Origin: Candidatus Jorgensenbacteria bacterium
GTDB taxonomy: Bacteria; Patescibacteriota; Minisyncoccia; UBA6257; GWB1-50-10
Assembly: GCA_037444725.1 (NCBI GenBank)
Contig: JBBILW010000001.1
Span: forward strand, 5,056-69,055
Length of the DNA stretch: 64,000 bases
Reading direction: 5' to 3'
Part shown: piece after piece, positions 25,040 through 49,226 of the stretch
Layout: each line of letters opens with the position of its first letter
Numbering within the stretch: position 1 is the first letter of the stretch
The notes under the pieces: generated by a model
What the model was told of the DNA's origin: nothing
Databases searched by the model: none
What the model saw: the letters and a program-made list of their open reading frames with translations, nothing else
Program-made: the position numbers and the translations under genes

Positions 25040-25044
25040 CAAAA

Positions 25045-33663: not shown

Positions 33664-34620
33664 TTAGTGTGTAGCAAATGGATTCTTTGCGCCGATGACC
33701 TCGAAGTGGAGGTGGCAGCCCGAGGGTCCGTCCGTGTTACCAGTGTTGCCCACAAAACCTATCGGATCTCCCTGATTTACTTCATCACCGACTTTCACCG
33801 CAACTTTTTCTAAGTGCGCGTAGCGGGTCTTCAAACCACCCGAGTGCTGGATGAGCACGAAAAGACCGTAGCCGTTGTTCCATCCGCTTGCGCCATCGCT
33901 GCGCAGCTCTTCATCTTCGATAACCGTACCGCCCGCAGCCGCGACGACCTGCGTTCCGCATTTATTTACAATGTCCACGGCATTTTGCGTGTGCAGCTCG
34001 CCCAAATTATTGCCCGCAAGCGGCAGCGAGAGAACTCCTTTCGCAAGCGAGGGGAGCTTCTCGGCAGCACGCGCAATCGTTTTTGCGCTCGGCGCGACTC
34101 CCGGAAGTACGAGTGTGCCCTTACCGGCAATTAAAATCTTCTGGTAATCAGCGTTGTGCTGCTTAATAATGCCTTGGCTTATTGAGAAATCCGCCGCAAT
34201 CGAATCCAGCGTATCGCCCTGCTTCACTTCATAAAGAATTCCCGAAACCGGTAAAATCACGAGCTCATCTCCTACGTGGACCGAACGCGTGCCTCCGTTT
34301 GCCCACTGTACCGTTTCACGCGAAATGCCAAATTCCGCAGCAATGCTCGTAATCGTGTCTCCCTTGCGCACCTTGTAGCGCTTCAGGCCGTCGCGCACAG
34401 GGGAAAGGTTAGTGAGAGGATTTGCGCTTGCCGTCGCGGAAATGCCGTCATCGTCTGTCGTCTTCACGGAGTCATCGCCCTCCAGCGCATATCCGACAGG
34501 AAGTTCGGAAGCGAGTGACAGGCTGTTTTCTTTTGCTACCGCACCGCCCGTATTAATCGCTGCGCCCTCATCGGAATAGTACACCGCCCGAGATTGGGGG
34601 AGTGGCACAAGATTCAACAA
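33664..34620 (-). CDS. LysM-domain M23 metallopeptidase
   Basis: Two LysM repeats and an M23 active site (HxxxD...HLHFE). Confidence 0.85.
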   Translation of the reverse strand: MLNLVPLPQSRAVYYSDEGAAINTGGAVAKENSLSLASELPVGYALEGDDSVKTTDDDGISATASANPLTNLSPVRDGLKRYKVRKGDTITSIAAEFGISRETVQWANGGTRSVHVGDELVILPVSGILYEVKQGDTLDSIAADFSISQGIIKQHNADYQKILIAGKGTLVLPGVAPSAKTIARAAEKLPSLAKGVLSLPLAGNNLGELHTQNAVDIVNKCGTQVVAAAGGTVIEDEELRSDGASGWNNGYGLFVLIQHSGGLKTRYAHLEKVAVKVGDEVNQGDPIGFVGNTGNTDGPSGCHLHFEVIGAKNPFATH

Positions 34621-34791
34621 AAGAAGGGAGGCTACGACGAGAACCGACCAGATGCTGGTCGTTGCGGTGATTTCGGGCGCGTCAGGCGCTATTTTTTTTA
34701 TGACCGCGTTTACTGTATTAATGTTATTAGTATAGCAAAATCCTGCGTTATTTCAACGTTACTCCGCATTTTTATGCTATACTTATGAGTA

Positions 34792-35145
34792 ATGAAAAGA
34801 ATAATTGCGTGCGGAATGTTTCTCGCGATTGCGCTCATTTTCGTGGCGCCAAGGCCCGCGAAAGCATTTACTTCGTTCGGCGGCACCGTAGTCACCACAT
34901 TTGCTCCCGCCGTAGCCTGTGCGGGCGAGGGACCCATCACCATTATTCCCGCCGGCTTGTTCCCGCCGGGTCCCTACGCCGCCTATCCGCTTACCATGCG
35001 CTATTCTCACTACTTTATTCATCCTGGCCAAAAAATTCTCGGGCTCTATATTCCCTTCTTAACGCCGGGCCTCTGCTGGACAACCACACCGATTCCCATA
35101 CCCGTGCCCGTGTTCCCGATAATCATGTTCGGAACGAGTCTCTAG
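34792..35145 (+). CDS. small secreted Pro-rich hypothetical protein
   Basis: Signal peptide MKRIIACGMFLAIALIFVAPRPAKA. Preferred over the overlapping alternative-frame ORF at 34785-35198. Confidence 0.35.
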   Translation: MKRIIACGMFLAIALIFVAPRPAKAFTSFGGTVVTTFAPAVACAGEGPITIIPAGLFPPGPYAAYPLTMRYSHYFIHPGQKILGLYIPFLTPGLCWTTTPIPIPVPVFPIIMFGTSL

Positions 35146-35149
35146 CCGC

Positions 35150-35968
35150 ATGCGCCAAAAACTTGGACAGCACTTTCTCACCGATATCGATCTTCTGAAA
35201 AGAATCGCATCGTACGTTGATATTCGCGAAAACGATGTCATTCTCGAGATCGGCCCAGGACATGGAGAGCTTACCTCGCATCTTGTTCGCGAGGCCTCTG
35301 CTCACAAAAATGTAAGAATTATGCTCGTCGAAAAGGACGAGTCGCTGGTCGTGAAGCTTCAAACAAAGTTCGCGCCCCCGCTTAAGAGCGGGGTTGTCGG
35401 TATTTTCGGCGGCGACGCGCTCGCGCTTCTTCCCCAAATTGTCGATGGGCTCTCAAAAACAGGGCAATCATACAAAATTGTGGGCAATATTCCGTACTAC
35501 ATCACCGGATTTCTCTTTCGTGTCATCGGCGAACTCGCGCACAAACCCACATCGTGCGTTTTTCTTATCCAGAAAGAGGTCGCTGAACGCGCCGCCGCAC
35601 AGCCGCCGCACATGAATCTCCTCGCCGCGAGCGTGCAGTACTGGGCGAATGCGGAAATGCTCGATTTTGTACCCAAAGACTCTTTTAATCCTCCTCCTGA
35701 GGTGGATTCCGCGGTCATCCGACTCGTCACCAAGACTTCTGCAGCCACCACGCTTCCGGAACAGTACTTTATGTGCGTAAAAGCGCTCTTCAAGCAGCCT
35801 CGAAAAAACATTCAGAACAACCTCAAAGAGCTTGAGAGCTTCTCCACACTCTCCAAAGAGCGAGCACTGAAATTATTTGAATCTATCGGCCATAAACCTA
35901 CTGATAGGCCGCAAGATATGCACATAGAATCTATCTTATTACTCGCTCATCTGTTGTATAATGAGTAA
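35150..35968 (+). CDS. rsmA: 16S rRNA (adenine1518/1519-N6)-dimethyltransferase
   Basis: QHFL start and VLEIGPGHGELT SAM-binding motif. Confidence 0.85.
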   Translation: MRQKLGQHFLTDIDLLKRIASYVDIRENDVILEIGPGHGELTSHLVREASAHKNVRIMLVEKDESLVVKLQTKFAPPLKSGVVGIFGGDALALLPQIVDGLSKTGQSYKIVGNIPYYITGFLFRVIGELAHKPTSCVFLIQKEVAERAAAQPPHMNLLAASVQYWANAEMLDFVPKDSFNPPPEVDSAVIRLVTKTSAATTLPEQYFMCVKALFKQPRKNIQNNLKELESFSTLSKERALKLFESIGHKPTDRPQDMHIESILLLAHLLYNE

Positions 35969-35973
35969 GTAAT

Positions 35974-36717
35974 ATGCGAACGAGATCCATCATCGCCTTA
36001 CTTGTACTTCTCTTTGGGGCGGGGAGCGCTGTTTGGATTGCGTCGCCTAAAGTTTTTAGCGGCCACGCCGCATCGGAGGTTTCTTTCGCCACAAGCAGCG
36101 CGGGCGCAGATCCGCGATTTACGAACGACACGGGCGCGGGAAGCGACACTTCCAATGACATTTCCGAGGAAAACGTGGTGCGCAATTACGGCAGAGAAAT
36201 TCTTCGCCTTAACCCGCAGGGCCAGGGGAAAGATGCTCCGATAATCGTTCCCAATGAGGCGGTTTTTTCTCAGATGATTCAGGATGAGATTTCAAAACCG
36301 ATTCCTGTGCGCACGTACACCGAAAATGATATTACCGTTTTGAAGGCGACAGACAAAAAAACCGCACTCGCGTACGCGACTGCGATTGATTCCGCAAATA
36401 AGAAGACCATCGGTGCGCTTGCCACTCCGTTCGTGGCCGCCGTCCAACAATATGTTTCCGATAATAATCCTCAGGAACTTTCCCGCCAGTCATCCGCCAT
36501 TGCTGCCTACATCACCGCACTTCTTGCGACGCCTGTTCCGCAAACCTGGAAGACGTTTCATCTCGGACTCATTAATCTTCTCAGCAAGCGCTTCGCATAT
36601 GCGAATGCCATTCTCGATAATAACGACTCACAGCTGAAAATAGCCGCGGCTCTCAGCAATATTATTTCACTCGTTGATGAAGAGGTCGAACTCTACAAAA
36701 CCATGCCCACCCAATAA
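35974..36717 (+). CDS. secreted hypothetical protein (first gene of the envelope cluster)
   Basis: Signal peptide present. No recognisable motif. Confidence 0.4.
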   Translation: MRTRSIIALLVLLFGAGSAVWIASPKVFSGHAASEVSFATSSAGADPRFTNDTGAGSDTSNDISEENVVRNYGREILRLNPQGQGKDAPIIVPNEAVFSQMIQDEISKPIPVRTYTENDITVLKATDKKTALAYATAIDSANKKTIGALATPFVAAVQQYVSDNNPQELSRQSSAIAAYITALLATPVPQTWKTFHLGLINLLSKRFAYANAILDNNDSQLKIAAALSNIISLVDEEVELYKTMPTQ

Positions 36718-36735
36718 CGGAACGGCACCACCATC

Positions 36736-38457
36736 ATGAACTTCCGCATTCATTCGCTTATCGCATCGTCGCTCTTTGTCACCGTGCTCACCACGAGTAT
36801 TTTTGCATACTATCCAGTGAAAGAAGTGCACGCTCAAGCCGGTACGTCAGAAGTCCTGGGAGCCTGCGGCGTGAATGCCGCACTCGATGCATTGACCGCA
36901 GTCGCGGGAGAAGCATTAAGTTTTTTAAGCACATCGGTTCCCACCACAAACCGTCCGCAACAACTTACGACAATTAAGTATGGTATTCAGCAATGTCTTA
37001 TGGCGATATTAAACCTCACCATCAAAGTCATGCTCGCGAAATTAAAAAAGCGGCTTTTGGACAGACTTACCGATGACACCATTTCCTGGATTAATGGCGA
37101 TGGGGGAAAGCCCAAATTCGTTACCAACTTCGGCGACGTGCTCAAGGAAAGCGCCGATGCTGCGGTTGGCGACACGCTCCGTGCATCGGGTATGGGTAAG
37201 CTCTGCTCTGACAAATTATCACTCCAAGTACAGGTATCATTACGAAAACAAAAGAAATTTTCCGAAGGTATAACCTGCACTCTTACGGGAGCGGCAAAAA
37301 ACGTTTCAGCATTTGCCGATAACTTTAACAATGGCAGCTGGATAGGGTATGGACAGCTTCTCGAGCCCTCAAATAACCGCTGGGGACTGCAGCTCCTTGC
37401 CATGGATGCGCTTGATACCAAAAAATCGCAGCTCAATGAGGCTACGAAGTTAAAAACCCAGGCAAGCACGGGCTTTACACCGACCGAGTTCTGTAAGGCG
37501 TGGACGCTTACCGGCGTACACACAACGGATGGTATCGGCAAGGTTACAGAAATCGCGCGCGTATCAGGAGACGTGTTTAATGGCGGACTCCGCGCACCGG
37601 AAAATCCTCCAAGTCCCACCGAGCGACCCGGAAACGCCGATTATTATCCGCCTGATTTCCCACAAAACTATACTGACCTTGCTTATGTTTGCGTTTCGGG
37701 AGACCGCGTTGTTTCAACGCCTGCGACGACAATCTCCGGCGCGACCGACAAGGCGGTTACGAGCGATTGGAATACCATCGCCAACATGGACGATCTCACT
37801 CCCTACATATCTGCAATATTCGATGCCGCGGTTAACCGAGTGAAGAAAGCTGGCGTGAAGGGTTTGTTGTCCGCCAAAAACGACCTCTTCAGCGACAGCA
37901 GCAAGACCGGCTATTCAGCCGGCGCGGGAGGGAGCGCAACTGATCAGACCGTTATCGAGTTAAAAGCTTCGTACGCTGCCGCGATGGCTGAAGCATCGAG
38001 TACTAGCGCACTTCTTAAGGCTGCGAACGACCAAATCACAACCGCGCTTAATCAATTGAACGCGCTTGGCGCCTGCCAGGCCTCCGTACTCGTTGCGCTA
38101 AATCCTATGGGAACGGTTTTTGATTGTCCTGCCACCGGTACAAAACTCACCACAGTTTCCAACTCATACGCATCGCTCAACACATACGCTTCAAATCTCG
38201 CCGATGCAAAAAAATCACTTTCACAAACCACCTCCCAGGTGAACGCCGCAACGAGTACCATGAGCATTACCACCCTTGCGACTCTTTCCTCGCTCGTGGC
38301 TGACGCAAGAGGAAAAATAGCTTCTATAGCAATCGGCGTTCAAAAGATTATTGACGCAACCACCGCAGACGCAACGCTTATAGCAAACGAACTCACCACC
38401 TGCTCGAATGCCGCAAAATTCCCCGGCACCGCATACAGCTGTCCTGTCTGGCCCTAA
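36736..38457 (+). CDS. large secreted hypothetical protein (573 aa)
   Basis: Signal anchor with a Thr/Ser/Ala-rich composition and no recognisable domain. Confidence 0.45.
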   Translation: MNFRIHSLIASSLFVTVLTTSIFAYYPVKEVHAQAGTSEVLGACGVNAALDALTAVAGEALSFLSTSVPTTNRPQQLTTIKYGIQQCLMAILNLTIKVMLAKLKKRLLDRLTDDTISWINGDGGKPKFVTNFGDVLKESADAAVGDTLRASGMGKLCSDKLSLQVQVSLRKQKKFSEGITCTLTGAAKNVSAFADNFNNGSWIGYGQLLEPSNNRWGLQLLAMDALDTKKSQLNEATKLKTQASTGFTPTEFCKAWTLTGVHTTDGIGKVTEIARVSGDVFNGGLRAPENPPSPTERPGNADYYPPDFPQNYTDLAYVCVSGDRVVSTPATTISGATDKAVTSDWNTIANMDDLTPYISAIFDAAVNRVKKAGVKGLLSAKNDLFSDSSKTGYSAGAGGSATDQTVIELKASYAAAMAEASSTSALLKAANDQITTALNQLNALGACQASVLVALNPMGTVFDCPATGTKLTTVSNSYASLNTYASNLADAKKSLSQTTSQVNAATSTMSITTLATLSSLVADARGKIASIAIGVQKIIDATTADATLIANELTTCSNAAKFPGTAYSCPVWP

Positions 38458-38460
38458 TTC

Positions 38461-39969
38461 ATGAAGTATCGCCCCAAATATTTATTCCTTGGACTAGTCA
38501 TCGCGGGAAGCGTTGCGCTGCTTACGCCTCATTTGGCGCACGCGGGCATTATGGATGACACGGCAATAAAAGTTGGCGTGGCGATGTTTAGTGTGGTCGC
38601 CTACATCATCAACACGATAGTCGGTTTCTTGTTCGTTGCTGCCGCATGGCTCGTCGGCATCGCGATGAGCATCAACGATACCGTCGCAAGCTCAACCAAT
38701 TCCATTGTAACCATCGGATGGGGGATATCACGTGATATTGCAAACCTCGGTTTCGTGCTTGCGATGGTCGTTATCGCATTTGCCACCATCATCAATTATG
38801 AACCATACGGCGCACGCAAACTTCTTGTGAAACTCATCACCGCGGCTATTCTCGTAAATTTCAGCTTGACGATAGGCGGCGTCCTTATTGATTTTTCAAA
38901 CGTCCTCACCCACTTCTTTCTCAGCCGAATCAACGTGACCCCTATCGAACTCGCGAGTAAGCTTGCGCAAGCGCTCGGGCCTCAGAAATTCATACTGGGC
39001 GACACGACCGATCCGCTTCCGCCCGATCCGAAGAACCAGCCGAATGTTCAGGAGGCGATTGGTTGGGGAGTACTGCTCAACATAAGCGGCCTTATATTTT
39101 CGATGGCATTCATTCTCATCTCCACCATCGTGCTGCTCACCTTTGCCGTCATGCTTCTTGTGCGTTTCGTAACACTTACGATTCTTCTTGCGTCAGCGCC
39201 GCTCTCCTGGCTCTTCAGCGTCATTCCGCAACTGAATAAGATGAACGATCTCTGGTGGAATAAATTTACGCAATGGACGTTCTTTGCGCCCGCGATGACA
39301 TTCTTTGTTTATCTCGCGCTTGCGGGTCTCGATGCTCTGTCGATACAATCCACTCCGGATACATTCTTCAGCGACCCTGGACTCGCCACCATTATGGCGA
39401 CGGGCATGAGGGGTGTATTGCTCTGCGGCACACTTGTTGGTGGATTAATGGCCGCAAATAAAATGGGTATTACAGGCGCGGCCGCGGGAATGGGCGCGGC
39501 AAAAGGCTTGTGGAGCGGCACTAAGGGATATGTGGGCGAGCGTGCAACCATGCTTCGCCAGCGCCTTGCGGCGGCGGGCATGCAAATCGATAAAAGCGGC
39601 GTGGCAACGACGGGCGCGGGGCGTGTCGCCGCAGCACTTGGCAGGGGTCTCTATCAGGTACCTCTTGTGGGAACAGGACTCGCGCGAAGGGCCGAGCGCG
39701 TGCGGGACGCGATTGGAAGAGACGCAGCAGCGCACATCGAGAATCGAGGGGTTGTGCGCACCGGTATAATGGGCTCACTCTTCCGCGGCGCTGCTGAGGG
39801 TGCGGGCGTTGTCGGCAAGAAAAAGGCAAGAAAACCTGAGGACATGACAAAAGAAGAACTGCTTGAAGAGCGGGAAACGCTTAAAACTGAAAAAGAAGCG
39901 GCCGAAAAAAGAGGGAAGGCGGCTGAATCCGCAAATATTCCGACGGGTGGTCAAACGCCGTCGGTTTAA
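38461..39969 (+). CDS. polytopic membrane protein, VirB6/TrbL-like
   Basis: At least six predicted TM helices and a Gly/Ala-rich cytoplasmic tail. The topology matches T4SS inner-membrane VirB6 proteins. Confidence 0.4.
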   Translation: MKYRPKYLFLGLVIAGSVALLTPHLAHAGIMDDTAIKVGVAMFSVVAYIINTIVGFLFVAAAWLVGIAMSINDTVASSTNSIVTIGWGISRDIANLGFVLAMVVIAFATIINYEPYGARKLLVKLITAAILVNFSLTIGGVLIDFSNVLTHFFLSRINVTPIELASKLAQALGPQKFILGDTTDPLPPDPKNQPNVQEAIGWGVLLNISGLIFSMAFILISTIVLLTFAVMLLVRFVTLTILLASAPLSWLFSVIPQLNKMNDLWWNKFTQWTFFAPAMTFFVYLALAGLDALSIQSTPDTFFSDPGLATIMATGMRGVLLCGTLVGGLMAANKMGITGAAAGMGAAKGLWSGTKGYVGERATMLRQRLAAAGMQIDKSGVATTGAGRVAAALGRGLYQVPLVGTGLARRAERVRDAIGRDAAAHIENRGVVRTGIMGSLFRGAAEGAGVVGKKKARKPEDMTKEELLEERETLKTEKEAAEKRGKAAESANIPTGGQTPSV

Positions 39970-40026
39970 AAAACCGAACTCTACGGCTAAGAATAGTGGG
40001 TCTGCCTAATACATATCAAAAACCGC

Positions 40027-41397
40027 ATGGAAAGTTTTAAGAATCCGTTCGACGCGCGCATTAAAGCAATAGACGACGTTCTTGAGAAACGATTCGGAGA
40101 AGCAAAAACCGCAAGCGATTGGCAAAAGCGCGTAGAGGCGCTTGAAGAAGAGCAGAAAAAAACCAAAGACGCTGGTTATGATTTTTCGTACTACAAATCA
40201 GCAATCGCGCAAGCAAGAAAAAAGAAAGTTGAGACTATGGACGACGGCACACTTGAGGAGCAGCTCAAGAAAATTAAGGAGTTCGAATCGCTTCGTGAAG
40301 AAGAGGATAAAATCCTCCGCGAAAAAATAGAAGCGGAAACCGACGAGAAGAAAAAGGAGGGATTAAAAAAGGACAGAAATAAGGCGCTCGCGTATTATGA
40401 AAAGAAAATAAACGAGATTGAAGAAAAGATAAAACCGAAAAATGAGGAGGAGTTCATCAAAAAAATCTCGGACATAGAAGAGAGGAGGAGTGAAAAACTT
40501 CAACGATTGGGAGTAAACAAAGAAGGGAAGACCATCGCAGATGTTACTTATTTCGATTCACAGCTCGCCACAGCGCAACGCGAGCTCGATAAACTAATCA
40601 CCGCAAAAACCGAGAGGCCCGTTCAGTACGTTTTGGAAGCGGGTCTTAAGAAAATCCGCACGCAAAGGGATATAGAAATCGCCTCTCACGGCACGAGCAG
40701 TTTAAGCGACATCCTTAATGACGCTACAAAAAAATTTACCGTATTTGTTTCCGATTGGCGGAAATTTGATTCGCAAAAACTGAAACAAGCACGGCAATGG
40801 GAGGCGCGGCGAGCATCGCTCGACAAACTTGAACGAGATTTCGGGCCCGCCATAGAAGAAGTCAAAAAAATCCCCGCGTTCGCGTCTGAAGCGCAACAGA
40901 TTGAGGATGAAGTGCGCGCGATTATTAAAGAACAAAAAGAACTTGTGGATGATGAAACAAATAAGACGGATGGCGCGCAAAAATCCAAACCTGAGGCGTC
41001 ACAATCGATAGACGATCTTCTGAAGGTGATGGCGATTGCGCAAGAAGGCGAGCGAGTTAAAAAAGAACGTGAGACGTTGCAGCGGGAAAAGCCGATTCAA
41101 TTCCTTGTAGAAGATTTGATTAACCAGCTTCAGAAACAGCGTGATACTGAAACTCTTATAGATGCGCTGTATCAATTCGAAAGTTCTTGGCAAAAGATTG
41201 ACGAACGCAAGCCGGAAACAGAGGCGGAGTGGGCGCTTCGCCGCGATGCATTGCGGGCACTTAAAATGGAACTCCTCAATGCAAAGAAGAAATTGTCTGA
41301 TATGAAAATCGTTATCGATTATAGCGCAATCGACAACGAGATTGCGGATGCGGACGATTTTTTAGCTGCCGCGGGTAAAAAGGATCAGCAGTCCTAG
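40027..41397 (+). CDS. Lys/Glu-rich coiled-coil hypothetical protein
   Basis: Pervasive EK-rich heptad-like composition and no TM helix. Confidence 0.45.
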   Translation: MESFKNPFDARIKAIDDVLEKRFGEAKTASDWQKRVEALEEEQKKTKDAGYDFSYYKSAIAQARKKKVETMDDGTLEEQLKKIKEFESLREEEDKILREKIEAETDEKKKEGLKKDRNKALAYYEKKINEIEEKIKPKNEEEFIKKISDIEERRSEKLQRLGVNKEGKTIADVTYFDSQLATAQRELDKLITAKTERPVQYVLEAGLKKIRTQRDIEIASHGTSSLSDILNDATKKFTVFVSDWRKFDSQKLKQARQWEARRASLDKLERDFGPAIEEVKKIPAFASEAQQIEDEVRAIIKEQKELVDDETNKTDGAQKSKPEASQSIDDLLKVMAIAQEGERVKKERETLQREKPIQFLVEDLINQLQKQRDTETLIDALYQFESSWQKIDERKPETEAEWALRRDALRALKMELLNAKKKLSDMKIVIDYSAIDNEIADADDFLAAAGKKDQQS

Positions 41398-41439
41398 CCA
41401 ATAGGAGGTACAATTGAAAACGACATCGGTATATAATGT

Positions 41440-42618
41440 TTGTATACGAGAGATATGGATTATTCACTCATCACTGAACAAGCGATTAACAACCGATACA
41501 ATACCGTCCCGGAAGAACTTCGCGATGCGGTGGATTCCGAACAAACGCAAAAGCTGATATCCAACATCAGCAAAACGCAGTATTTGAATGAGGAAAAATC
41601 GCTTATCTTGGAGCAACTCGTTGCACTTGTGCTCCTCGGCTTTATGTCGACAAACGAACTGGTGCACGAGCTTCGCGAACAGCTTTTCTTAAACCATGAG
41701 CACGCCCGCGTACTGGCAAATGAGCTCAACAACAGAATTTTCGAGTCACTTAAAGAAGAGCTCGCTGCCGCATACAATCCTCCCGCGGCTACCATTGAAC
41801 AGGAAGCGCCTCAGCCTCCCTCGGCGGTAAGAGCACCAGCCGAAGAACCTCTTCCTATTACGTCGTTTAAGATCGCTCCGGAAGCGGCGCCTGCGCCGGC
41901 ATCCACGCCCGCGCCCATTTCTCCCGTTTCCATCAACGCAAGCGAAGGCGGGCCCGCAGTTTTGCAGAAACAGACGCCCTTTTTCGAACGGGCGGAATTA
42001 AAACCGACCGGTAAGAAACCGTCGCTTTCATTCAACACGTTCGCATCATCATCCGAGACCACCGAACCGCCTCGCGTTCAGGCAAAAATCGAAACTCCTC
42101 TCGGTGTGCAATGGGCAGCGAAAAAAGAGGAGCCTAAAAAAATGGGGAAGGTGGTGCACTATAGCGAATTCGGCTCATCAGGAGGCGGAGGCCGCCCCGC
42201 ACCCGTTTCGGAGTTTATTAATCTTGAGGCGCTCAAAAAGGTTTCGCTCGACACAAAGCCCGCCCCCGCGGCACCGCAGGTAGCCCCAGCCGCACCTCAA
42301 TCCGCAAGCCCCGCTCCGCAGCAACCTCCGGCAGCTCCTTCTGCGCCGATTCTTAACCCCGACGTGCCGACGCTCATCACGCCGGTCGCAACGATAAAGC
42401 CAGCGCCGATAGAAGAGAAAAAGAGTCCTCTCATGTGGGGTATAAATCCCATTTCTGTAAGCGTTCCAACTGCCACAACAGCTGATTCGGGACCGAAGCG
42501 TATGGATGCAATAGTGCCTAATGCCGGCTCTCCAGCAGCTCAAAAACCAGCTCCCGTACCGATTTCGAGCGATACGAAACAACCCGCACTTGAAGGAAAT
42601 GTTATTCACCTTCGCTAA
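41440..42618 (+). CDS. hypothetical protein with a Pro/Ala-rich central region
   Basis: The track start is a TTG. An ATG at 41455 is an alternative start. Confidence 0.4.
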   Translation: MYTRDMDYSLITEQAINNRYNTVPEELRDAVDSEQTQKLISNISKTQYLNEEKSLILEQLVALVLLGFMSTNELVHELREQLFLNHEHARVLANELNNRIFESLKEELAAAYNPPAATIEQEAPQPPSAVRAPAEEPLPITSFKIAPEAAPAPASTPAPISPVSINASEGGPAVLQKQTPFFERAELKPTGKKPSLSFNTFASSSETTEPPRVQAKIETPLGVQWAAKKEEPKKMGKVVHYSEFGSSGGGGRPAPVSEFINLEALKKVSLDTKPAPAAPQVAPAAPQSASPAPQQPPAAPSAPILNPDVPTLITPVATIKPAPIEEKKSPLMWGINPISVSVPTATTADSGPKRMDAIVPNAGSPAAQKPAPVPISSDTKQPALEGNVIHLR

Positions 42619-43115
42619 TGGCACAATTTCAGATACCACAATTTATTGAAGAGGAGGCAAAAATTGTCGGCCCTCTTACCATTAAACAATTCGGCTATCT
42701 CGCAGTCGCGGGGGGCCTTTCGTTTGGGCTCTTCTATTTATTTACGTTCTTTCTCTGGCTTATAGTGTCCGCCATTCTTATCGGCGCGGCGGCCGCCCTT
42801 GCATTCGTGAAGATTAACGGACAAGGTCTTCCTGAAATTCTTCTCGCGGGCTTTTCATTTTTATGGAAACCGCGCCGTTATGTTTGGCAGCGGGCAATGC
42901 AGCAGACCACGCTCGACATTTCCGATCTTGAAAAAATACAAACGATACGCAAAAGCATCAGTATTTCGGACAAGCTTAAGAACATCGCTGTAGGAGTGAC
43001 TACGGGAAAGATATTCCGCGGCGAGGGCGAAACACCAAGTCAGCCCAAAGAGCGTTATCAGGTTGTTTCTTACCTTACCGGGGAGCAGAAGGTAGCAAAG
43101 CGCATCGATTACTAG
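42618..43115 (+). CDS. PrgI/VirB3-like small T4SS membrane protein
   Basis: N-terminal IPQFIEEEAKIVGPLTIKQFGYL followed by two TM helices. It sits immediately upstream of the VirB4 ATPase, as in Gram-positive T4SS operons. Confidence 0.5.
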   Translation: MAQFQIPQFIEEEAKIVGPLTIKQFGYLAVAGGLSFGLFYLFTFFLWLIVSAILIGAAAALAFVKINGQGLPEILLAGFSFLWKPRRYVWQRAMQQTTLDISDLEKIQTIRKSISISDKLKNIAVGVTTGKIFRGEGETPSQPKERYQVVSYLTGEQKVAKRIDY

Positions 43116-43151
43116 CGCATAAACCGTTGAAATACGGTACAATATACGTAT

Positions 43152-43802
43152 ATGGCAGAAGTCAGCCTTCCTACACAACAATTCGTTGATATAAAAGAGG
43201 TGCGCAATGGCGTCGTCTACCTGAAACAGGGAGGCATGCGCAAGATTCTTATCGTGAGCGGCGTTAACTTCGACCTCAAATCCGAGGCTGAGCAGACCGC
43301 CATTCTCGGCACGTTCCAAAACTTCATCAATACCATCGATTTTCCTGTTCAATTTTTCATTCACTCGCGCAAAGTAAACATCGAGACCTATCTTGAGAAG
43401 ATGAGCGAGCGACAATCAAAGGAAGAAAACGAGCTCTTAAAAATACAGATTGGAGAATATATTGAATTTATCCGCTCATTTGTCGAACAGAACGCTATTA
43501 TCAATAAAACTTTTTTTGCAATTGTCCCTTACGACGGCGGAACGGTAGTGGCGGGCGGGGGAGTCGACAATATTCTTAATATGTTCAACAAGCCCCAGTC
43601 TGCCGACGTGCAAAAACAGCAATCGGAACATGCCGCACTCGAACAACTTGAGTTGCGCGTTACCGAAATTTCAAACGGAATTGAACAAATCGGCCTCCGT
43701 GTAACTCCTTTGAGCGACGCCGAGATAGTCGAGCTTTTCTATAACCTTTACAATCCGCAGCTTCAGGAAAAGAAGGGTCTTGAGATTACCAAGCAACAAT
43801 GA
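43152..43802 (+). CDS. VirB4/TrbE-family conjugative ATPase, N-terminal domain ORF
   Basis: ILIVSGVNFDLKSEAEQTAILGTFQNFINTIDFPVQFFIHSRKVNIETYLEKM resembles VirB4 N-terminal domains. The ORF ends in ATGA, overlapping the start of the next ORF. Confidence 0.6.
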   Translation: MAEVSLPTQQFVDIKEVRNGVVYLKQGGMRKILIVSGVNFDLKSEAEQTAILGTFQNFINTIDFPVQFFIHSRKVNIETYLEKMSERQSKEENELLKIQIGEYIEFIRSFVEQNAIINKTFFAIVPYDGGTVVAGGGVDNILNMFNKPQSADVQKQQSEHAALEQLELRVTEISNGIEQIGLRVTPLSDAEIVELFYNLYNPQLQEKKGLEITKQQ

Positions 43803-45550
43803 AAATAAAAATCCCGCAACTCTATAAGCCGTCGCCTCAAGATCTCCCGAACATTATTGCGCCGTCGGGACTTGAGATTAATGCGAACTACATTAAAATC
43901 GGCGATTATTACGCGAAAACGCTTTTTATTTTCACCTATCCTCGTTTTGTGATGACGGGATGGTTTTCGCCCATTATCAATATGGCGGAAATGATGGATG
44001 TTTCCATCTTCATGCATCCCATGGACACCTCGCTCGCGCTTCAAAATCTCCGTAAAAAAGTTGCGCAGGTAGAATCGGAGCTTAATGAAAAACAGGCGAA
44101 AGGAATGGTGCGCGACCCCATGCTTGAGACCGCATACCAAGACATAGAAACGCTGCGCGACGCGCTTCTTCAGGCACGCGAGAAGCTTTTTAAAGTCGGT
44201 GTATATATTACTGTGTACGCACAAACACTTGAGGCGCTCACCAAAATCGAGGGCCAGGTTTCAAATGTTTTGGAAGGGAAGCTTGTGTATATAAAACCGT
44301 CTCTTTTCAAACAACTCGAGGGGTTTGACTCCACACTTCCTCTTGGCGAAGACAAGCTGCAGATTCACACGCCGCTCAACTCCGGCTCCGCTTCGTCGCT
44401 CTTCCCGTTTGTATCACCTGATTTGAGCTCTGAAAAGGGAATTCTCTTCGGCATCAATATGAGCAATAACAGCCTCATTATTTTTGACCGTTTCTCGCTT
44501 GAAAACGCGAACCAGGTTATTTTCGCAAAGTCTGGCGCCGGTAAATCATATACCACCAAACTCCAGATTATCCGCTCACTCATGACGGGCACCAATGTCA
44601 TTGTTATCGACCCCGAAAACGAGTACCAAAACCTTGCCAATGCGGTCGGCGGAAGTTATTTCAAGATTTCACTTACCTCACCGAGCCACATTAATCCGTT
44701 CGACATCCCCATCATTCCGGAAGGGGAGGAGCCCGGAGACGTCTTCAAATCGCACGTGTTGAACCTCACGGGTCTTTTGAAACTCATGCTCGGCACTATT
44801 ACGCCCGAGGAAGACGCGATGCTCGATAAAGTTATCACCGACACGTACGCCTCACGTGACATTACGGCTGAGAATTTCGGTGTCACGAAAGAAATCAACC
44901 CGCCGCTCCTCGAAGACCTTCAGATTATTTTGCAAAACACCGAGGGCGGCCGCGCTCTTGCTCAGCGTCTTGAAAAATTCACTCACGGTTCGTATGCCGG
45001 CTTCACCAATGCGCCGACGAACGTTGATATCAAGAACCGCCTTATCGTGTTCTCAATCCGCGACCTGGAGGAAGAATTGCGCCCCATCGCGATGTACATC
45101 GTGTTGAACTTCGTGTGGAACCTCGTACGCTCCGAGCTCAAACAGCGCCTTCTCTTTGTCGACGAGGCGTGGATTATGATGAAGTTTAAAGACAGCGCCT
45201 CCTTCCTCTTCGGCCTTGTAAAACGCGCGCGCAAATACTTCCTCGGCATAACGACCATCACCCAGGACGTGGAAGATTTCTTGAAGTCGGAATACGGACG
45301 ACCGATTGTCACGAACTCTGCAATGCAGATTCTCATGAAACAGTCGCCGAGTTCTATTGAGGCAGTTGCGAAAACATTCGATCTCACCGATGGCGAACGC
45401 GTGCTTCTTCTGGAAGCCGGGGTGGGCGAGGGGTTGTTCTTTGCGGGTGCAAAGCACGTAGCTATTAAAATAATCGCGTCATACACGGAAGATCAGATTA
45501 TTACTACAAACCCCGAGCAAATGCTGGAGACTAAAGGATTGCAAAAATAA
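43799..45550 (+). CDS. VirB4/TrbE/CagE-family conjugative ATPase, C-terminal ATPase ORF
   Basis: Walker A (FAKSGAGKSYTTK), Walker B (LLFVDEAWIM) and a YAKTLFI...YPR region. Confidence 0.8.
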   Translation: MKIKIPQLYKPSPQDLPNIIAPSGLEINANYIKIGDYYAKTLFIFTYPRFVMTGWFSPIINMAEMMDVSIFMHPMDTSLALQNLRKKVAQVESELNEKQAKGMVRDPMLETAYQDIETLRDALLQAREKLFKVGVYITVYAQTLEALTKIEGQVSNVLEGKLVYIKPSLFKQLEGFDSTLPLGEDKLQIHTPLNSGSASSLFPFVSPDLSSEKGILFGINMSNNSLIIFDRFSLENANQVIFAKSGAGKSYTTKLQIIRSLMTGTNVIVIDPENEYQNLANAVGGSYFKISLTSPSHINPFDIPIIPEGEEPGDVFKSHVLNLTGLLKLMLGTITPEEDAMLDKVITDTYASRDITAENFGVTKEINPPLLEDLQIILQNTEGGRALAQRLEKFTHGSYAGFTNAPTNVDIKNRLIVFSIRDLEEELRPIAMYIVLNFVWNLVRSELKQRLLFVDEAWIMMKFKDSASFLFGLVKRARKYFLGITTITQDVEDFLKSEYGRPIVTNSAMQILMKQSPSSIEAVAKTFDLTDGERVLLLEAGVGEGLFFAGAKHVAIKIIASYTEDQIITTNPEQMLETKGLQK

Positions 45551-45554
45551 TGCC

Positions 45555-45905
45555 ATGGAAGACGAGAAGCCATTTTCTCTTGTTGAAATAATCTTCGGCA
45601 CTCTTATTGCGCTTATCATCGACGTTGTGGCCGCGATTGCGAGCGCGTTCAGTCTCGGTATTCTCGGTTTTTTTGTCCACGCGGGAACATGGCTCGTCTT
45701 CACGCTCTGGTTTACAATTAAAGGGTTGGGCGTGACCGCTTCGCTCGCGAGAAGATATTTTCTTCCCATGGCAATTCAGGCAATTCCTTTTCTCCCCACA
45801 ACAACCGTAACATTCCTCATGGTCACGTATATGGAAAATAATCCCGATAAATTCGCTGCAGTTACGTCAGTGGCACGCGTAGCGGGTACTGTTGCAAAGC
45901 TATAA
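45555..45905 (+). CDS. small multi-TM membrane protein
   Basis: About three hydrophobic helices. Position within the cluster. Confidence 0.4.
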   Translation: MEDEKPFSLVEIIFGTLIALIIDVVAAIASAFSLGILGFFVHAGTWLVFTLWFTIKGLGVTASLARRYFLPMAIQAIPFLPTTTVTFLMVTYMENNPDKFAAVTSVARVAGTVAKL

Positions 45906-45907
45906 CC

Positions 45908-46585
45908 ATGCGCCAACTCACCACAATTCTTGCGTTCGCCTTCGTGCTTTTTATCGCGCTACACTCTTTCGCGTACGCAGCAGGGGCGCCGGCGCTCATC
46001 ATCACGTGGAAAGCCGATAATTATTACCCCATTAACTTCGAGGGCAGGGCGCTTCCTTCGCCGACAACGCCCGTAACCGTTTCTGTAGAGGGCGCTGTTG
46101 ATGGAAAACTTATCGATCTCTCAAAGGCGGACATTTCCTGGTACAAAGACGGTGACAGGTTTGATGTAGGCTCCGGACTTAAAGAAACTTCATTTAATGC
46201 CGAGGACACGGATGCGGGCTCGCACTTTATCCGCGTAGTTGCGGTTATTAATGGAGTTTCCGCGGAGCAAACGATTCGCATACCCGTCGTAAGCCCCGTC
46301 GCAGTGCTCGAGGTGCCATATCCGAATAAAGTCGTTCCTGCGGGAACTGTGGCGAATCTCGTAAGCGTGCCTTACTTTTTTAATGCGTCATCGATAACCG
46401 ACTTCATCTTCAGCTGGCAGATTGCCGACCTCAAACAAAACACCGGAAGCGATAACGTACTCGCGATAAATGTCGGCACGCCTTATACTGATGACCAACG
46501 GACAGTGACGGTTAACTCGTACATTCAAAATCGCAATAATCCGTTTGAAATCGTGAAGCTTCTCACCGATATTTTTGTGAAATAA
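45908..46585 (+). CDS. secreted hypothetical protein
   Basis: Signal peptide with a beta-rich composition. Confidence 0.4.
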   Translation: MRQLTTILAFAFVLFIALHSFAYAAGAPALIITWKADNYYPINFEGRALPSPTTPVTVSVEGAVDGKLIDLSKADISWYKDGDRFDVGSGLKETSFNAEDTDAGSHFIRVVAVINGVSAEQTIRIPVVSPVAVLEVPYPNKVVPAGTVANLVSVPYFFNASSITDFIFSWQIADLKQNTGSDNVLAINVGTPYTDDQRTVTVNSYIQNRNNPFEIVKLLTDIFVK

Positions 46586-46594
46586 TCCATCTCA

Positions 46595-47800
46595 ATGACC
46601 AGACGACAAATTACCATCCTCCTCATACTTTTCCTCATGGTCGTGGGTGTTATCGTGTACGCAATTTTCTTCCGTGGAACAACGACTCCCGCGGAACAAG
46701 CAGCGCCCTCCGAGCAGCAAACCACAGGAGAGCCGCAAGGCGTGACGGGCACCACAGGAACAACTCCTTCTGGCGCCACACCTGAGGCGACAACAACCAC
46801 CACGACCGAATTTCCTCCGGCGGCCACCGCGGGAGATACGTATGTGCTCAAAAAACTTTCCGACGGTCCTGTTGTAGGCTATTGGGCGGCAAAAAATTCA
46901 AATGACGTCTATTATCTCACCAACGACGGATATGTGATGTCGGCAAAAGAGGGGCCTGATGTAGATCTCTTAAAACAGGAAGTGAAGGGGGTAATCAAGC
47001 TTGAGGGATCTCCCTCAGGAAACAAGGCGCTTGTCGCATTCGGAAATGCAGCCTCCCCGCAATGGGCCGTGTTCGACACACAAGACAAGGCATGGAGACC
47101 GCTTCCCTCAACTATTATTGATGCAACATGGGGCATAAGCGATGACGGCATTGTGGCAACCACGAAGTCTATGGGGAATAACATTGCGCTCACCTATATC
47201 ACTATCTCCAAAACGCCGTTTGATATTAAAACTATCGTGAAGGATTTTCGCTTCAACAGCGTAACTCTCGCCATAAAATCTATTGACGAGCTTTACATAA
47301 TGGAACGCCCGTCCGCATTGGCGCTATCGCATGTCTGGCTTTTCAATCTTAAGTCGAACGCCCTCACGCAGGTGCTTAATCCGGCAAACGGCCTCACGCT
47401 TGTTCCGGGAAGCAATAAAGATATTTTCTTCCGTTTTAGCTCGCCGAATAATTTTGCGATACTCAACCGCTCGCTTGGCATGACGCAGCCATTTCCTTAT
47501 GTCACATTACCTCAAAAGTGCGACGGGGTAAGCACGGCCGTTTACTGCTTTGTTCCTAAAAATACTTCTATTTTTTCGGCCAGCAATTCAATGCCCGATG
47601 ATTATCTTATGAAAAAAACGTACACGAGCGATGATTTTTACCGCCTTGACCTCACGACAGGAGGGGATAGGCTTATAGTAACGGGCGACTCAGCAAACGC
47701 TCCTGCACTTGATGCGCAAAATGTGCGGACGAGGGGCACATCAACGTATTTCGTTAACCGTTACGATAACTATGTCTATGCGATCCAGAAGGCACAATAA
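46595..47800 (+). CDS. membrane-anchored secreted hypothetical protein with a Thr-rich linker
   Basis: N-terminal TM helix and a TGTTGTTPSGATPEATTTTTT linker. Confidence 0.4.
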   Translation: MTRRQITILLILFLMVVGVIVYAIFFRGTTTPAEQAAPSEQQTTGEPQGVTGTTGTTPSGATPEATTTTTTEFPPAATAGDTYVLKKLSDGPVVGYWAAKNSNDVYYLTNDGYVMSAKEGPDVDLLKQEVKGVIKLEGSPSGNKALVAFGNAASPQWAVFDTQDKAWRPLPSTIIDATWGISDDGIVATTKSMGNNIALTYITISKTPFDIKTIVKDFRFNSVTLAIKSIDELYIMERPSALALSHVWLFNLKSNALTQVLNPANGLTLVPGSNKDIFFRFSSPNNFAILNRSLGMTQPFPYVTLPQKCDGVSTAVYCFVPKNTSIFSASNSMPDDYLMKKTYTSDDFYRLDLTTGGDRLIVTGDSANAPALDAQNVRTRGTSTYFVNRYDNYVYAIQKAQ

Positions 47801-47801
47801 T

Positions 47802-49196
47802 ATGAATAAAAAAACGCTGTTTGCTCTCGTGGTTGTCAGCCTCATCATCGTGCCTTCTATTATTCTCGCGGCTAGCGCTCCCGCGCCCCTGCGCTTCTCG
47901 CCACCTTACATAAGCGGCGTACCGGGGTTTGCCGGCACTTCACAGGCGCCCATCATGTCGGGTGGAGCAACCTCGATTCAGGATTATCTTATTCGCATTT
48001 ATCAGTTTGCTATCGGTATCTCAGGCGTAACCGCGGTCGGCATGATTGTGTGGGGCGCTATCAATATGTCGATTTATACAGGACGTATCGACCGATACGA
48101 GGAAGGTAAAACAATAATTTACCAGGCACTTTTTGGTCTTGCGCTTCTCTTTGGTTCATACCTCTTACTCAACACCATCAACCCGCAAATCACCACACTC
48201 ACCGAACCAACCGGAGGCGGAAAACAACTCGATGCAGTTACCACAACCACAGTAGCAAACCCAGGATCGAGCGCGTCGGGCTCATCGATATGCGGCGGCG
48301 GGCAACTTGCGAGCATACCGCAACTTCCCAACCTTTCATCCGCCACGCCGAGCGCAACTGGCTGCGAATATAGGCGCCTCCAACTCACGCAAGACCTCAC
48401 ATACTCCGCAAAGGGTATGTATAACCAAGACCTTAACTTGAAAAAAGGTGCCATTATATGGCTCTGGCCGTATTATGTTGGAGACACAGCATCAGCACGT
48501 TGTACTATCTACGCCTATAAAGACGCTCCCATTGAAGTGCCTAATTACGCTCCAGATGGCTCCGTTCAAGGACCTCCGACTCTTTCTTATCCCGCGACCC
48601 AACAAGTGTCGCTCAAGCTTGATGGTATGAGTAAATGCGGAAACGACCCCGCGACCCAGCAACCAGGCGCAACCTGCACCGATTGCGCAGCAACCGGAGG
48701 TTCGGTTGATGTAAGCGGTATTAACACAAGCAATCTTGATGGCAACGGATCATGCTCGCCATCAATAAACACCTCACCCGCGGGCATTATTTCCGATATA
48801 AAAAATGGCAATCTTCCCTACATTTGTTACCCGGGCTGCAACTCGACAACTGCGCCTTGCACGAGAAGCGGAGCAACACTTTCCGCAAATACCGTAAACA
48901 CGATTATCAATCTCCAAAATTCCGGAATGTCCTTTACAGTAACAAGTCTCACGGGCGGTTCACACAGCGCGGTAGGTGATGTGCACTATCAAGGAAAGGC
49001 ACTTGATGTGGTGTTTCAGCCGCAAGATGCCACCACGTGGAATAAGGCATTGAAATTACTACAAGGCATGAGCACTGTTTCACAGGCGGCATGTGAATTC
49101 ATTGGAGGTAGTCCGCCCAACTTTGATCAGAGTTCGTGTAATGGCTTATTCGCATCAGGCACCACAAATCGGCACATCCACGTCACCACGAAATAA
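47802..49196 (+). CDS. pilin-fold (VirB2-like) N-terminal domain fused to an extracellular domain of about 320 aa that contains many Cys
   Basis: Signal peptide followed by two hydrophobic helices (IQDYLIRIYQFAIGISGVTAVGMIVWGAI...ALFGLALLFGSYLLLNTINP), then a long C-terminal domain with many Cys. Start trimmed to MNKKT. Confidence 0.45.
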   Translation: MNKKTLFALVVVSLIIVPSIILAASAPAPLRFSPPYISGVPGFAGTSQAPIMSGGATSIQDYLIRIYQFAIGISGVTAVGMIVWGAINMSIYTGRIDRYEEGKTIIYQALFGLALLFGSYLLLNTINPQITTLTEPTGGGKQLDAVTTTTVANPGSSASGSSICGGGQLASIPQLPNLSSATPSATGCEYRRLQLTQDLTYSAKGMYNQDLNLKKGAIIWLWPYYVGDTASARCTIYAYKDAPIEVPNYAPDGSVQGPPTLSYPATQQVSLKLDGMSKCGNDPATQQPGATCTDCAATGGSVDVSGINTSNLDGNGSCSPSINTSPAGIISDIKNGNLPYICYPGCNSTTAPCTRSGATLSANTVNTIINLQNSGMSFTVTSLTGGSHSAVGDVHYQGKALDVVFQPQDATTWNKALKLLQGMSTVSQAACEFIGGSPPNFDQSSCNGLFASGTTNRHIHVTTK

Positions 49197-49226
49197 AAAA
49201 CACCCCTTGCGGGGTGTTTTTTTAAT
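49194..49226. terminator. bidirectional rho-independent terminator ending the envelope cluster and the jag gene
   Basis: acacccc-ttgc-ggggtgt flanked by an A-run and a T-run. Confidence 0.6.

Follow-up and report, generated by a model that had tools for sequence, protein, structure and literature searches.

A Jorgensenbacteria chromosomal gene cluster that probably encodes a Patescibacteria-type type IV secretion system, with a predicted pilin-peptidase fusion

The window analysed here, a stretch of 64,000 nucleotides from contig JBBILW010000001.1 of Candidatus Jorgensenbacteria bacterium, carries twelve co-directional open reading frames (ORFs) on the plus strand between positions 35974 and 49196, grouped around a gene for a VirB4-family ATPase. 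The question raised by this locus is whether it is a conjugation module, what is left of one, or a machine with some other task. An earlier note on the same DNA had placed the twelve ORFs at these positions, where all were found, and had argued that they make up a single operon, which is no canonical conjugation module and may instead serve as a surface pilus or for attachment or DNA uptake. The non-conjugative reading is upheld by our analysis, as the cluster matches the published, non-conjugative type IV secretion system (T4SS) of the Patescibacteria. Judging from sequence comparisons, the cluster is very probably a chromosomal, vertically inherited T4SS of a bacterium within the candidate phyla radiation (CPR), belonging to the Patescibacteria clade of these systems and derived from the monoderm conjugation machinery of the MPF-FATA class. 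The ORFs are designated o1 to o12 in their order along the plus strand. Those encoding the core of the machine, together with o4, are as follows:

38461-39969 (+), o3, polytopic membrane protein of 502 aa with a charged C-terminal tail and at least six hydrophobic segments
40027-41397 (+), o4, K/E-rich coiled-coil protein of 456 aa, 42% charged residues, no transmembrane (TM) segment
42618-43115 (+), o6, PrgI/VirB3-like small membrane protein (Pfam PrgI, PF12666)
43152-43802 (+), o7, TrsD-like protein of 216 aa, its stop overlapping the o8 start
43799-45550 (+), o8, VirB4-family ATPase of 583 aa, central and C-terminal domains

The ATPase had been recognised from the letters alone, and that call holds. 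In the Pfam scans, which covered 59 ORFs of the window, o8 matches the TraG P-loop family (E 4.9e-27), AAA_10 and DUF87; its translation shows intact Walker A (SGAGKS) and Walker B (LLFVDEAW) motifs. The best solved relative is the ATPase domain of the Thermoanaerobacter VirB4 (PDB 4AG5, E 2.6e-45), and a match to TrwK of R388 was also obtained (E 5e-5). A search of one genome per species yielded 482 VirB4 relatives, the best 80 of which define the set of related loci used throughout. All 80 come from CPR metagenome-assembled genomes (MAGs; 62-98% identity). The two best are uncultured MAGs, at 98% and 93% identity, and the next 78 (62-83%) are Paceibacterota, Jorgensenbacteria, Brennerbacteria, Harrisonbacteria and "Patescibacteria group" MAGs. 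Because the best relatives are of this kind, the window is identified, by sequence, as part of the chromosome of a CPR/Patescibacteria bacterium, Paceibacteria- or Jorgensenbacteria-like, in keeping with the reduced-genome bacterium supposed earlier. The best VirB4 proteins from plasmids outside the CPR are at most 36% identical. They belong to the CD1110 type and come from Streptomyces, Embleya, Pontibacillus, Bacillus and Clostridium (28-36% identity), a result that agrees with the published placement of the Patescibacteria proteins beside the monoderm MPF-FATA class.

The short length of o8 is accounted for by o7, in which the N-terminal domain of VirB4 appears to be encoded separately. The o7 product matches the NCBIfam models VirB4_plasma (NF045975, E 1.2e-9, aligned to positions 106-221 of 894), TrsD/TraD (E 2.7e-8) and the CD1110 VirB4 N-terminus (E 1.8e-5), all with scores under the full-length cut-offs. 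It is 32% identical (E 1e-30) to a 274-aa protein encoded directly upstream of VirB4 in Pontibacillus and occurs in 74 of the 80 loci; a single-sequence search of PDB gave no match. By these relationships o7 is identified as TrsD, the split-off N-domain of VirB4. The small membrane protein o6 had been described as PrgI/VirB3-like, correctly so: it matches PF12666 at 40.2 bits (E 4.9e-10), above the cut-off of 27, has a hydrophobic hairpin at residues 27-69 and is present in 73 of the 80 loci.

The assignment of o3 as a VirB6-like protein is only probable and the evidence for it weak. The earlier note had proposed it from topology and local motifs. Topology and position are in line with it: o3 lies upstream of PrgI-TrsD-VirB4 as does the large membrane protein of the Bacillota (Pontibacillus) cluster; family matches are faint. 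Three of 61 orthologues match Pfam TrbL/VirB6 (best E 1e-6), and the copy in the window gives a weak NCBIfam match to the CD3337/EF1877 mobilome membrane protein (E 0.003). Apart from the three TrbL matches, nothing above noise came out of family-wide Pfam and PDB-profile searches, and no match was obtained with o3 in PDB-profile searches or in tblastn searches of the plasmid collection. The adjoining o4 is a separate gene only in the window and in its two closest relatives. In the other loci the VirB6-like gene is longer (median 663 aa; 150-400 aa more), ends in a charged tail and abuts o5. By position, therefore, o4 corresponds to the hydrophilic C-terminal extension of the longer "extended VirB6" proteins, and its separateness suggests a recent gene split or insertion.

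Systems of this composition have been described. Wang et al. (2023, Cell; PMC10633639) reported that the T4SS locus of Southlakia epibionticum, SEML1_0006-0019, is essential for epibiotic growth; the locus resembles Gram-positive conjugative systems, has pilins and lacks recognisable coupling or relaxase proteins. The essential T4SS genes of this organism include the pilin array, and comEC is not among its essential genes (PMC10633639; PMC12857230). The Patescibacteria T4SS is the first one reported to be essential for the growth of its owner. In the survey of Quinonero-Coronel et al. (2025, Microb Genom; PMC12102498), VirB4 was present in 2,417 of 3,035 genomes, nearly all of it in a single Patescibacteria clade nested in MPF-FATA. 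TrsD, PrgI/VirB3, VirB6 and VirB2-like pilins were encoded nearby, a relaxase almost never, and VirD4 was usually far away. In Paceibacteria the system adjoins dnaA, dnaN, ksgA, rnpA and rpmH (PMC12102498). The cluster of the window has the same components (VirB4, TrsD, PrgI/VirB3, a probable VirB6-like protein and VirB2-like pilins, with no relaxase or coupling protein nearby) and is likewise chromosomal in a reduced-genome CPR host. It sits between ksgA on one side and jag-yidC-rnpA-rpmH followed by dnaA-dnaN on the other, matching the Paceibacteria context. Given this agreement in position and gene content, no new system is involved. The suggestion that this might be a poorly described one thus holds for its function and its accessory proteins, and fails for its existence, which has been surveyed in about 2,400 genomes. 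Relative to Southlakia, the window copy is of the Paceibacteria rather than the Saccharimonadia type, its pilin array lies 11 kb away instead of within the cluster, and the pilin encoded inside the cluster has a beta domain and a LAS peptidase joined to it. For o1, o2, o5 and o9 to o11, no counterparts were detected in the published descriptions of Patescibacteria T4SSs that were consulted. The window provides a clean, fully collinear Paceibacteria example, in which folds or domains can be assigned to several genes that previously had none.

Comparison with the conjugative MPF-FATA systems (Trs of pGO1, Prg of pCF10, the CD1110 type and the Mycoplasma integrative conjugative element (ICE) with Mbov_0395/0397) showed both likenesses and differences. 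Shared features are the order membrane protein, VirB3-like, TrsD, VirB4, wall hydrolase; the lack of outer-membrane core proteins; the 28-36% (VirB4) and 32% (TrsD) identity to Bacillota proteins; and a pilin-like protein, which is found in the Pontibacillus and Mycoplasma-type clusters. By contrast, the window cluster has no relaxase, type IV coupling protein (T4CP), VirB8-like protein (PrgL/TraM) or PrgB-type adhesin and occupies a core chromosomal site, and its hydrolase is a LAS/M15-like domain fused to a pilin module rather than an SLT+CHAP VirB1-like protein. The Pontibacillus cluster is located on the megaplasmid NZ_CP062975.1 (351801-361354) of a Pontibacillus sp. and encodes, in order, a pilin-like protein of the Mbov_0395 family, a 779-aa membrane protein, a 116-aa protein, a TrsD-like protein, a CD1110 VirB4 and a 1050-aa M23 endopeptidase. 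The annotation shows no relaxase in the vicinity, and the replicon is classed as non-mobilizable in PLSDB; the cluster is a possible non-CPR analogue of a pilin-bearing monoderm T4SS. This common gene order, and the monoderm origin of the best PDB and plasmid relatives of VirB4, are our grounds for a monoderm ancestry.

If the cluster stems from conjugation machinery, it might still conjugate. Like the earlier note, we found no relaxase, VirD4/TcpA-type coupling protein or VirB11 among the 59 ORFs of the window that were scanned against Pfam; an oriT is recognisable only where there is a relaxase. A single FtsK-family protein is encoded (6947-9094), and its alpha and gamma domains mark it as a true FtsK. 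A relaxase/VirD4/oriT set immediately beyond the window, flanked by ICE or plasmid hallmarks, would according to the note have made this an ordinary conjugative element; on the right side, none of these conjugation genes occurs in the approximately 5.8 kb past the end. The missing functions (relaxase, oriT and VirD4) could be encoded elsewhere in the genome. The part inspected amounts to only about 70 kb; most Patescibacteria genomes encode VirD4 homologues, usually at a great distance from virB4, and 103 genomes have relaxases (PMC12102498). However, these 103 are out of 3,035 genomes, against 2,417 with VirB4, and in Southlakia the VirD4 homologue is non-essential while the T4SS is essential (PMC12102498). 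Nor is a fixed core site adjoining oriC, or conservation above that of DnaA, what one would expect of a conjugation system. We therefore consider a functional conjugation system very unlikely. A type IV pilus (PilB) system was also considered and rejected, as the cluster contains no T2SSE ATPase (one is encoded beyond the window).

The comparison of gene order across related genomes, proposed by the earlier note, gave a clear-cut result. The 80 loci follow the order comM, M23/LysM hydrolase (minus strand), ksgA, o1, o2, VirB6-like, o5, PrgI, TrsD, VirB4, o9, o10, o11 and o12 (in either order), jag and yidC (both minus strand), dnaA, dnaN. The succession ksgA, VirB6-like, PrgI, TrsD, VirB4, o10, jag, dnaA is kept in all 34 loci that span it, some of them in species as distant as 65% VirB4 identity, and is therefore not a product of chance. 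Median identity to the window is 77% for VirB4 (a value biased upward relative to its neighbours, because the loci were picked by VirB4 similarity), 70.5% for DnaA, 58% for TrsD, 51.5% for DnaN, 50% for PrgI, 43% for KsgA and 26-38% for the envelope proteins. Collinearity in 34 of 34 loci and a VirB4 more conserved than DnaA argue for a core, selected function. In sequence terms, such a pattern marks a core machine that is inherited vertically and under strong selection, with surface parts that evolve fast, and not a mobile element or a remnant.

A remnant would nonetheless explain some of the features. VirB4, TrsD, PrgI and the pilin-like proteins have homologues among the conjugation proteins that monoderm plasmids and ICEs encode, and the window has neither relaxase nor T4CP, as though an integrated conjugative element had lost these together with its integrase and persisted in an inert state. 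This is extremely improbable. All 12 ORFs are intact and tightly coupled, the order and chromosomal site are the same in 34 of 34 loci, and VirB4 exceeds DnaA in conservation. No integrase, tRNA or repeat is found at the borders of the cluster (ksgA and jag), the nearest tRNA and recombinase lying at 24.9-26.3 kb, and its composition does not deviate, the GC content of 0.46-0.53 being like that of the rest of the window. Finally, the homologous cluster of Southlakia is essential (PMC10633639).

The layout of the cluster was examined together with the sequences that delimit it:

35150-35968 (+), ksgA, 16S rRNA dimethyladenosine transferase (Pfam RrnaAD, E 3e-43)
49195-49222, bidirectional intrinsic terminator with a 12-bp stem, between o12 and the convergent jag

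From o1 to o12 the intergenic gaps measure 18, 3, 57, 42, -1, 36, -4, 4, 2, 9 and 1 nt, so that the range is -4 to 57 nt and not 0-40 nt as had been claimed; the last value takes the ATG at 47802 as the start of o12, for which 47778 is an alternative. The TAATG and ATGA overlaps that had been noticed are at 42618 (o5/o6) and 43799 (o7/o8), respectively, and the strong terminator reported after the last gene is indeed there, with the stem sequence AAAAAACACCCC-TTGC-GGGGTGTTTTTT and T-rich stretches on both sides. ksgA ends 5 nt before o1 and is adjacent to the cluster in 50 of the 80 loci. Owing to the 5-nt spacing, ksgA may be co-transcribed with the cluster, and the transcription unit could begin there. 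The divergent promoter region also contains a 137-aa ORF (34785-35198) that overlaps the ksgA start; it has a high content of Arg, Ser and His, lacks homologues and probably does not represent a gene. On the other side the cluster is followed by jag (R3H), yidC, a short rnpA and rpmH, then by dnaA and dnaN. DnaA-box-like sites are clustered at 52345-52622, in the spacer between dnaA and dnaN and at the 3' end of dnaA. With few exceptions, the genes on either side of dnaA-dnaN point toward it (window positions 19000-63600), and the GC skew of the plus strand changes from negative on the left of this region to positive on its right. Either oriC is at dnaA-dnaN and the operon runs head-on to replication, or the skew stems from the composition of the coding strand (C>G) and not from replication.

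The product of the last gene had been described as a pilin-fold fusion protein, a description that captured its N-terminal module and missed a peptidase domain at its C-terminus. The pilin-related features of the window are:

47802-49196 (+), o12, pilin-peptidase fusion with signal peptide, VirB2-like hairpin, beta domain and LAS domain
23666-24818 (+), three genes for short VirB2-like pilins of 140, 114 and 127 aa, 11 kb upstream of the operon

The N-terminus of o12 matches Pfam T4SS_pilin (PF18895; E 1e-5, 26.0-26.1 bits), as do 21 of 21 relatives (best E 4e-10), one of which also matches TrbC/VirB2. It can be aligned pairwise (E 8e-5) with the "Mbov_0395 family pilin-like conjugal transfer protein" of the Pontibacillus cluster. 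An AlphaFold2 model built from 16 sequences begins with a signal helix, followed by a hairpin of two helices (59-126), then a beta domain (190-280) and a C-terminal domain (320-464), the latter with a predicted local distance difference test (pLDDT) score of 80-91 against 64 for the whole chain. The C-terminal domain resembles in fold the solved LAS enzymes (fold-similarity values in brackets): the endopeptidase domain of the pneumococcal VldE (7.4), the Streptomyces zinc DD-peptidase (6.8) and the phage T5 L-alanoyl-D-glutamate peptidase (6.8), as well as VanXYc, Ply500, MepA, VanX and VanYB. A profile of 21 sequences also matched Hedgehog N-domains in PDB (E 4e-6). The presumptive zinc ligands form the motifs H-x6-D and H-x-H. 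All four (H78, D85, H141 and H143 in the numbering of the domain) are unchanged across 14 sequences; an alignment of 21 sequences has H395, D402 and H458 of o12 invariant and H460 conserved in at least 90%. By sequence alone the domain is inconspicuous: it falls under the gathering scores of all Pfam M15 models, a single-sequence PDB search found nothing for o12, and some family members give weak matches to Peptidase_M15_3 (E 0.005), M15_4 (E 0.015) and HH_signal (E 4e-4). From the model and the conserved ligands we conclude that o12 combines a VirB2-like hairpin with a predicted zinc peptidase of the LAS (Hedgehog/DD-peptidase, M15-like) type. It shares zinc ligands and fold with the LAS/Hedgehog group (MEROPS M15: VanX/VanY, phage T5 and Ply500 endolysins, Streptomyces Zn DD-peptidase, MepA; Hedgehog N-domain), differing from it in the attachment to a VirB2-like hairpin and beta domain and in being cysteine-rich. 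Plausibly, o12 serves as a functional stand-in for VirB1 or as an enzyme aimed at the wall of the host.

The 52 complete orthologues of o12 all keep the pilin module and differ from one another in the part C-terminal to it (146-568 aa). LAS motifs are present in at least 17 of the 52 by a strict pattern, and about a dozen more end in H-x-H when inspected by eye. The o12 protein is only 51% identical to that of the closest relative, whose VirB4 is 98% identical. An exhaustive search for proteins of this type returned 6,838 representative clusters (E<=0.001), most of those among the matches listed measuring 250-640 aa; "long pilins" are therefore a very large family. That o12 belongs to a very large class of Patescibacteria VirB2-like modules with variable C-terminal extracellular domains, which would arm the pilus, is a speculative proposal that we regard as unlikely in its full extent. 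Were such subunits built into the T4SS pilus or placed at its tip, enzymes cutting the host wall would be exposed on it, and it would be an enzymatically armed, fast-evolving host-penetration device instead of a passive filament. The published surveys consulted count these fusion proteins only as VirB2 homologues and leave the fusion unmentioned; no mention of a pilin-peptidase fusion, or of the Ig-like protein o10, was found in the main texts searched.

The three short pilin genes had not been connected with the cluster by the earlier note, and neither had ksgA or the split of TrsD from VirB4. The genes are in tandem, with mutually divergent sequences, and follow a gene for a solute-binding protein. 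Their products match PF18895 above its cut-off (E 1e-8 to 3e-8), the middle one also matching TrbC/VirB2 (PF04956, E 1e-6), and share the N-terminal layout of o12: signal peptide, helix, charged loop, helix. They are likely to be the major pilins of the system. In Paceibacterales transcriptomes, T4SS pilins are among the most highly expressed unknown genes (PMC10936435). The array is followed by tRNA-Leu(tag) at 24957-25040 and by a tyrosine recombinase gene at 25276-26322 (-), a neighbourhood that might mark an integration hotspot or just be due to XerC/D.

The remaining products of the cluster, and a wall hydrolase encoded on the other side of ksgA, are listed below:

35974-36717 (+), o1, 247 aa, N-terminal signal/anchor helix, one hydrophobic segment (residues 3-29)
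36736-38457 (+), o2, 573 aa, secreted or anchored, with signal-like N-terminus, conserved cysteines and a coiled-coil-like C-terminal third
41440-42618 (+), o5, 392 aa, conserved helical N-terminal part of about 100 aa and long Pro/Ala-rich tail, no TM segment
45555-45905 (+), o9, 116 aa, small membrane protein with two to three hydrophobic segments
45908-46585 (+), o10, 225 aa, N-terminal anchor/signal helix and two tandem Ig-like beta sandwiches
46595-47800 (+), o11, 401 aa, N-terminal TM helix and Thr-rich linker
33664-34620 (-), LysM and peptidase M23 cell-wall hydrolase, divergent from ksgA

Five of these (o1, o2, o9, o10 and o11) are shown here to be lineage-specific envelope proteins of the system, which also includes two products, o4 and o5, with no TM segment or signal peptide. 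At least six products of the cluster had been set down as lacking any recognisable domain. Tandem Ig-like domains are now assigned to o10; for o1, o2, o5 and o9 no family was matched. For o1, with orthologues in 25 loci, Pfam, NCBIfam and PDB-profile searches gave nothing. o2 is present in 59 of the 80 loci; no Pfam family was matched across 52 members, tblastn found no plasmid match, and PDB-profile matches were of the coiled-coil type only (E at least 0.002). On these sequence data it is stated to be a lineage-specific surface component. o5, whose stop overlaps the PrgI start, has orthologues in 38 loci; neither it nor o4 has a significant match in Pfam or NCBIfam. The same is true of o9, for which tblastn gave matches in 25-27 loci, most of the others having a VirB4-o10 spacing roomy enough for a small ORF. 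A phage tail or terminase reading of the ATPase was rejected, its sole hint being a match of o9 to Phage_tail_terminator_5 at E 0.046. The most conserved accessory protein is o10 (74 of the 80 loci). Pfam and NCBIfam scans returned nothing significant and family-wide searches no real match; its predicted structure (pLDDT 90.5), whose structural matches are generic only, identifies it as a membrane-anchored tandem Ig-like protein. Scattered weak matches to beta-propeller families of Pfam among 51 orthologues of o11 (best E 3e-5), which is present in 57 loci, make its ectodomain a probable beta-propeller.

Some observations weigh against the identification of the cluster as a Patescibacteria-clade T4SS, or against parts of it. 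The VirB6 assignment is weak, o3 of the window having no significant family match of its own and only 3 of 61 orthologues matching TrbL, and the pilin module of o12 scores just under the PF18895 cut-off (26.6 bits). No ORF has a sequence match to a VirB8-like (NTF2-fold) protein in Pfam or NCBIfam; the model of o10 is an Ig-like tandem, not NTF2, and the o1 profile matches nothing. VirB8 is missing from most Patescibacteria systems (PMC12102498), so its absence is compatible with membership of that clade. The choice of loci by VirB4 similarity favours VirB4 in the comparison with its neighbours. The head-on orientation of the operon, if oriC is where dnaA and dnaN are, fits poorly with the published idea of gene dosage for high expression. 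Lastly, the genome may have a VirD4 homologue elsewhere, in which case export through a coupling protein would be possible.

What, then, might the Patescibacteria-type T4SS of the window do? We infer that it is a pilus-forming conduit at the site of contact with a host. VirB4, anchored by VirB3 on a platform of VirB6, would extract VirB2 pilin subunits from the membrane, and these would polymerise into a pilus or tube projecting from the surface of the epibiont. The peptidase-bearing proteins and the Ig-like and propeller proteins would bind the host cell and open its wall locally, and the conduit would move macromolecules between host and epibiont without any relaxase. The steps of pilin extraction and wall hydrolysis are modelled on established T4SS biology, and the conduit between epibiont and host on the context. 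Tubular structures, possibly T4SS pili, have been described at a parasite-host interface in a 2026 preprint (bioRxiv 10.64898/2026.06.21.733656). Three functions were ranked. Import of host nucleic acid or other macromolecules is tentatively placed first, because the vicinity encodes no coupling protein, comM is conserved as a neighbour and the organisms are incapable of nucleotide synthesis. Export of effector proteins comes second and seems on balance unlikely. Adhesion by the pilus and nothing more is third, and improbable. The matter has some bearing beyond this genome, as the Patescibacteria T4SS is a leading candidate for the way in which a quarter of bacterial diversity takes building blocks from hosts; the function of the system and the family of pilin-anchored peptidases are where the interest of the locus now lies.

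One specific form of the import idea is a machine for DNA or RNA uptake similar to ComB, whose pilus would capture host nucleic acid and whose VirB4/VirB6 channel would import it as a supply of nucleotides. The cluster has no coupling protein, as in ComB of H. pylori, and comM, the gene for a transformation-associated helicase, is a conserved neighbour in 26 loci. Patescibacteria lack nucleotide synthesis, comEC is dispensable in Southlakia and the T4SS essential, and the preprint cited above ties parasitic RNA acquisition to putative T4SS pili. Yet these arguments are associations only. Searches of the cluster (Pfam, NCBIfam) turned up no nuclease, DNA-binding or ComEA-like domain, and the adjacency of comM could be incidental to a location close to oriC. 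The resemblance to ComB is also partial. Both systems are VirB4-based, non-conjugative and devoid of coupling protein and relaxase; however, ComB belongs to a diderm, has VirB7-10 and no pilin-peptidase fusion, is dispensable and operates together with ComEC, whereas the Patescibacteria system is essential in a ComEC-independent way and has no sequence relationship to ComB beyond the VirB core. We regard uptake of this kind as possible, and doubtful.

The features of o12 described above lend themselves to a different explanation, namely that the system exports effectors or attacks the host wall, displaying hydrolases such as the LAS peptidase at the host envelope or delivering them to it. In o12 a pilin module is joined to a zinc peptidase with intact ligands; the C-terminal parts of its family vary strongly even between close relatives (51%, against 98% for VirB4), the 6,838 matching clusters are mostly long pilin-plus-extension proteins, and protein export was suggested by Wang et al. 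(PMC10633639). On the other hand, the peptidase could remodel the cell's own wall for assembly of the machine, the classical role of VirB1, there is no T4CP available to recruit soluble effectors, and no toxin-immunity pairs were seen. As a whole, this explanation strikes us as rather unlikely, a little more so than uptake.

The neighbours of the cluster may have a part in its activity. The hydrolase divergent from ksgA (Pfam Peptidase_M23, E 2e-25; LysM, E 2e-14) is in the same position in 31 related loci. VirB1-like proteins with M23 and LysM domains are associated with virB4 in Paceibacteria (PMC12102498), and this one is a possible VirB1-type helper. ComM, a Mg-chelatase-like, transformation-associated helicase, is encoded at 32102-33637, upstream of ksgA, and is a conserved neighbour in 26 related loci. 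The conservation of both genes hints that the system is functionally linked to the processing of DNA and the remodelling of the wall.

The rest of the window has the appearance of an ordinary small chromosome, the other ORFs being housekeeping genes or giving no match in Pfam. Products encoded include an H+-PPase, a class I tRNA synthetase, FtsK, RecA, FtsH, GyrA and PNPase, along with ComM, PBP1, PolA and RuvABC. A contig overlapping the right end of the window continues for 5.8 kb and encodes a PilB-type ATPase, S20 and an AAA ATPase. The PilB/T2SSE-type ATPase (MshEN and T2SSE domains) lies about 0.3-2 kb past the window end; the genome therefore also has type IV pilus machinery near the origin region. 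An Rfam search of the window detected three tRNAs only. One of them is a tRNA-Ile with the anticodon UAU (15475-15547, minus strand), which would read AUA directly without lysidine modification by TilS; bacteria seldom have such a tRNA, and its presence may be connected with genome reduction.

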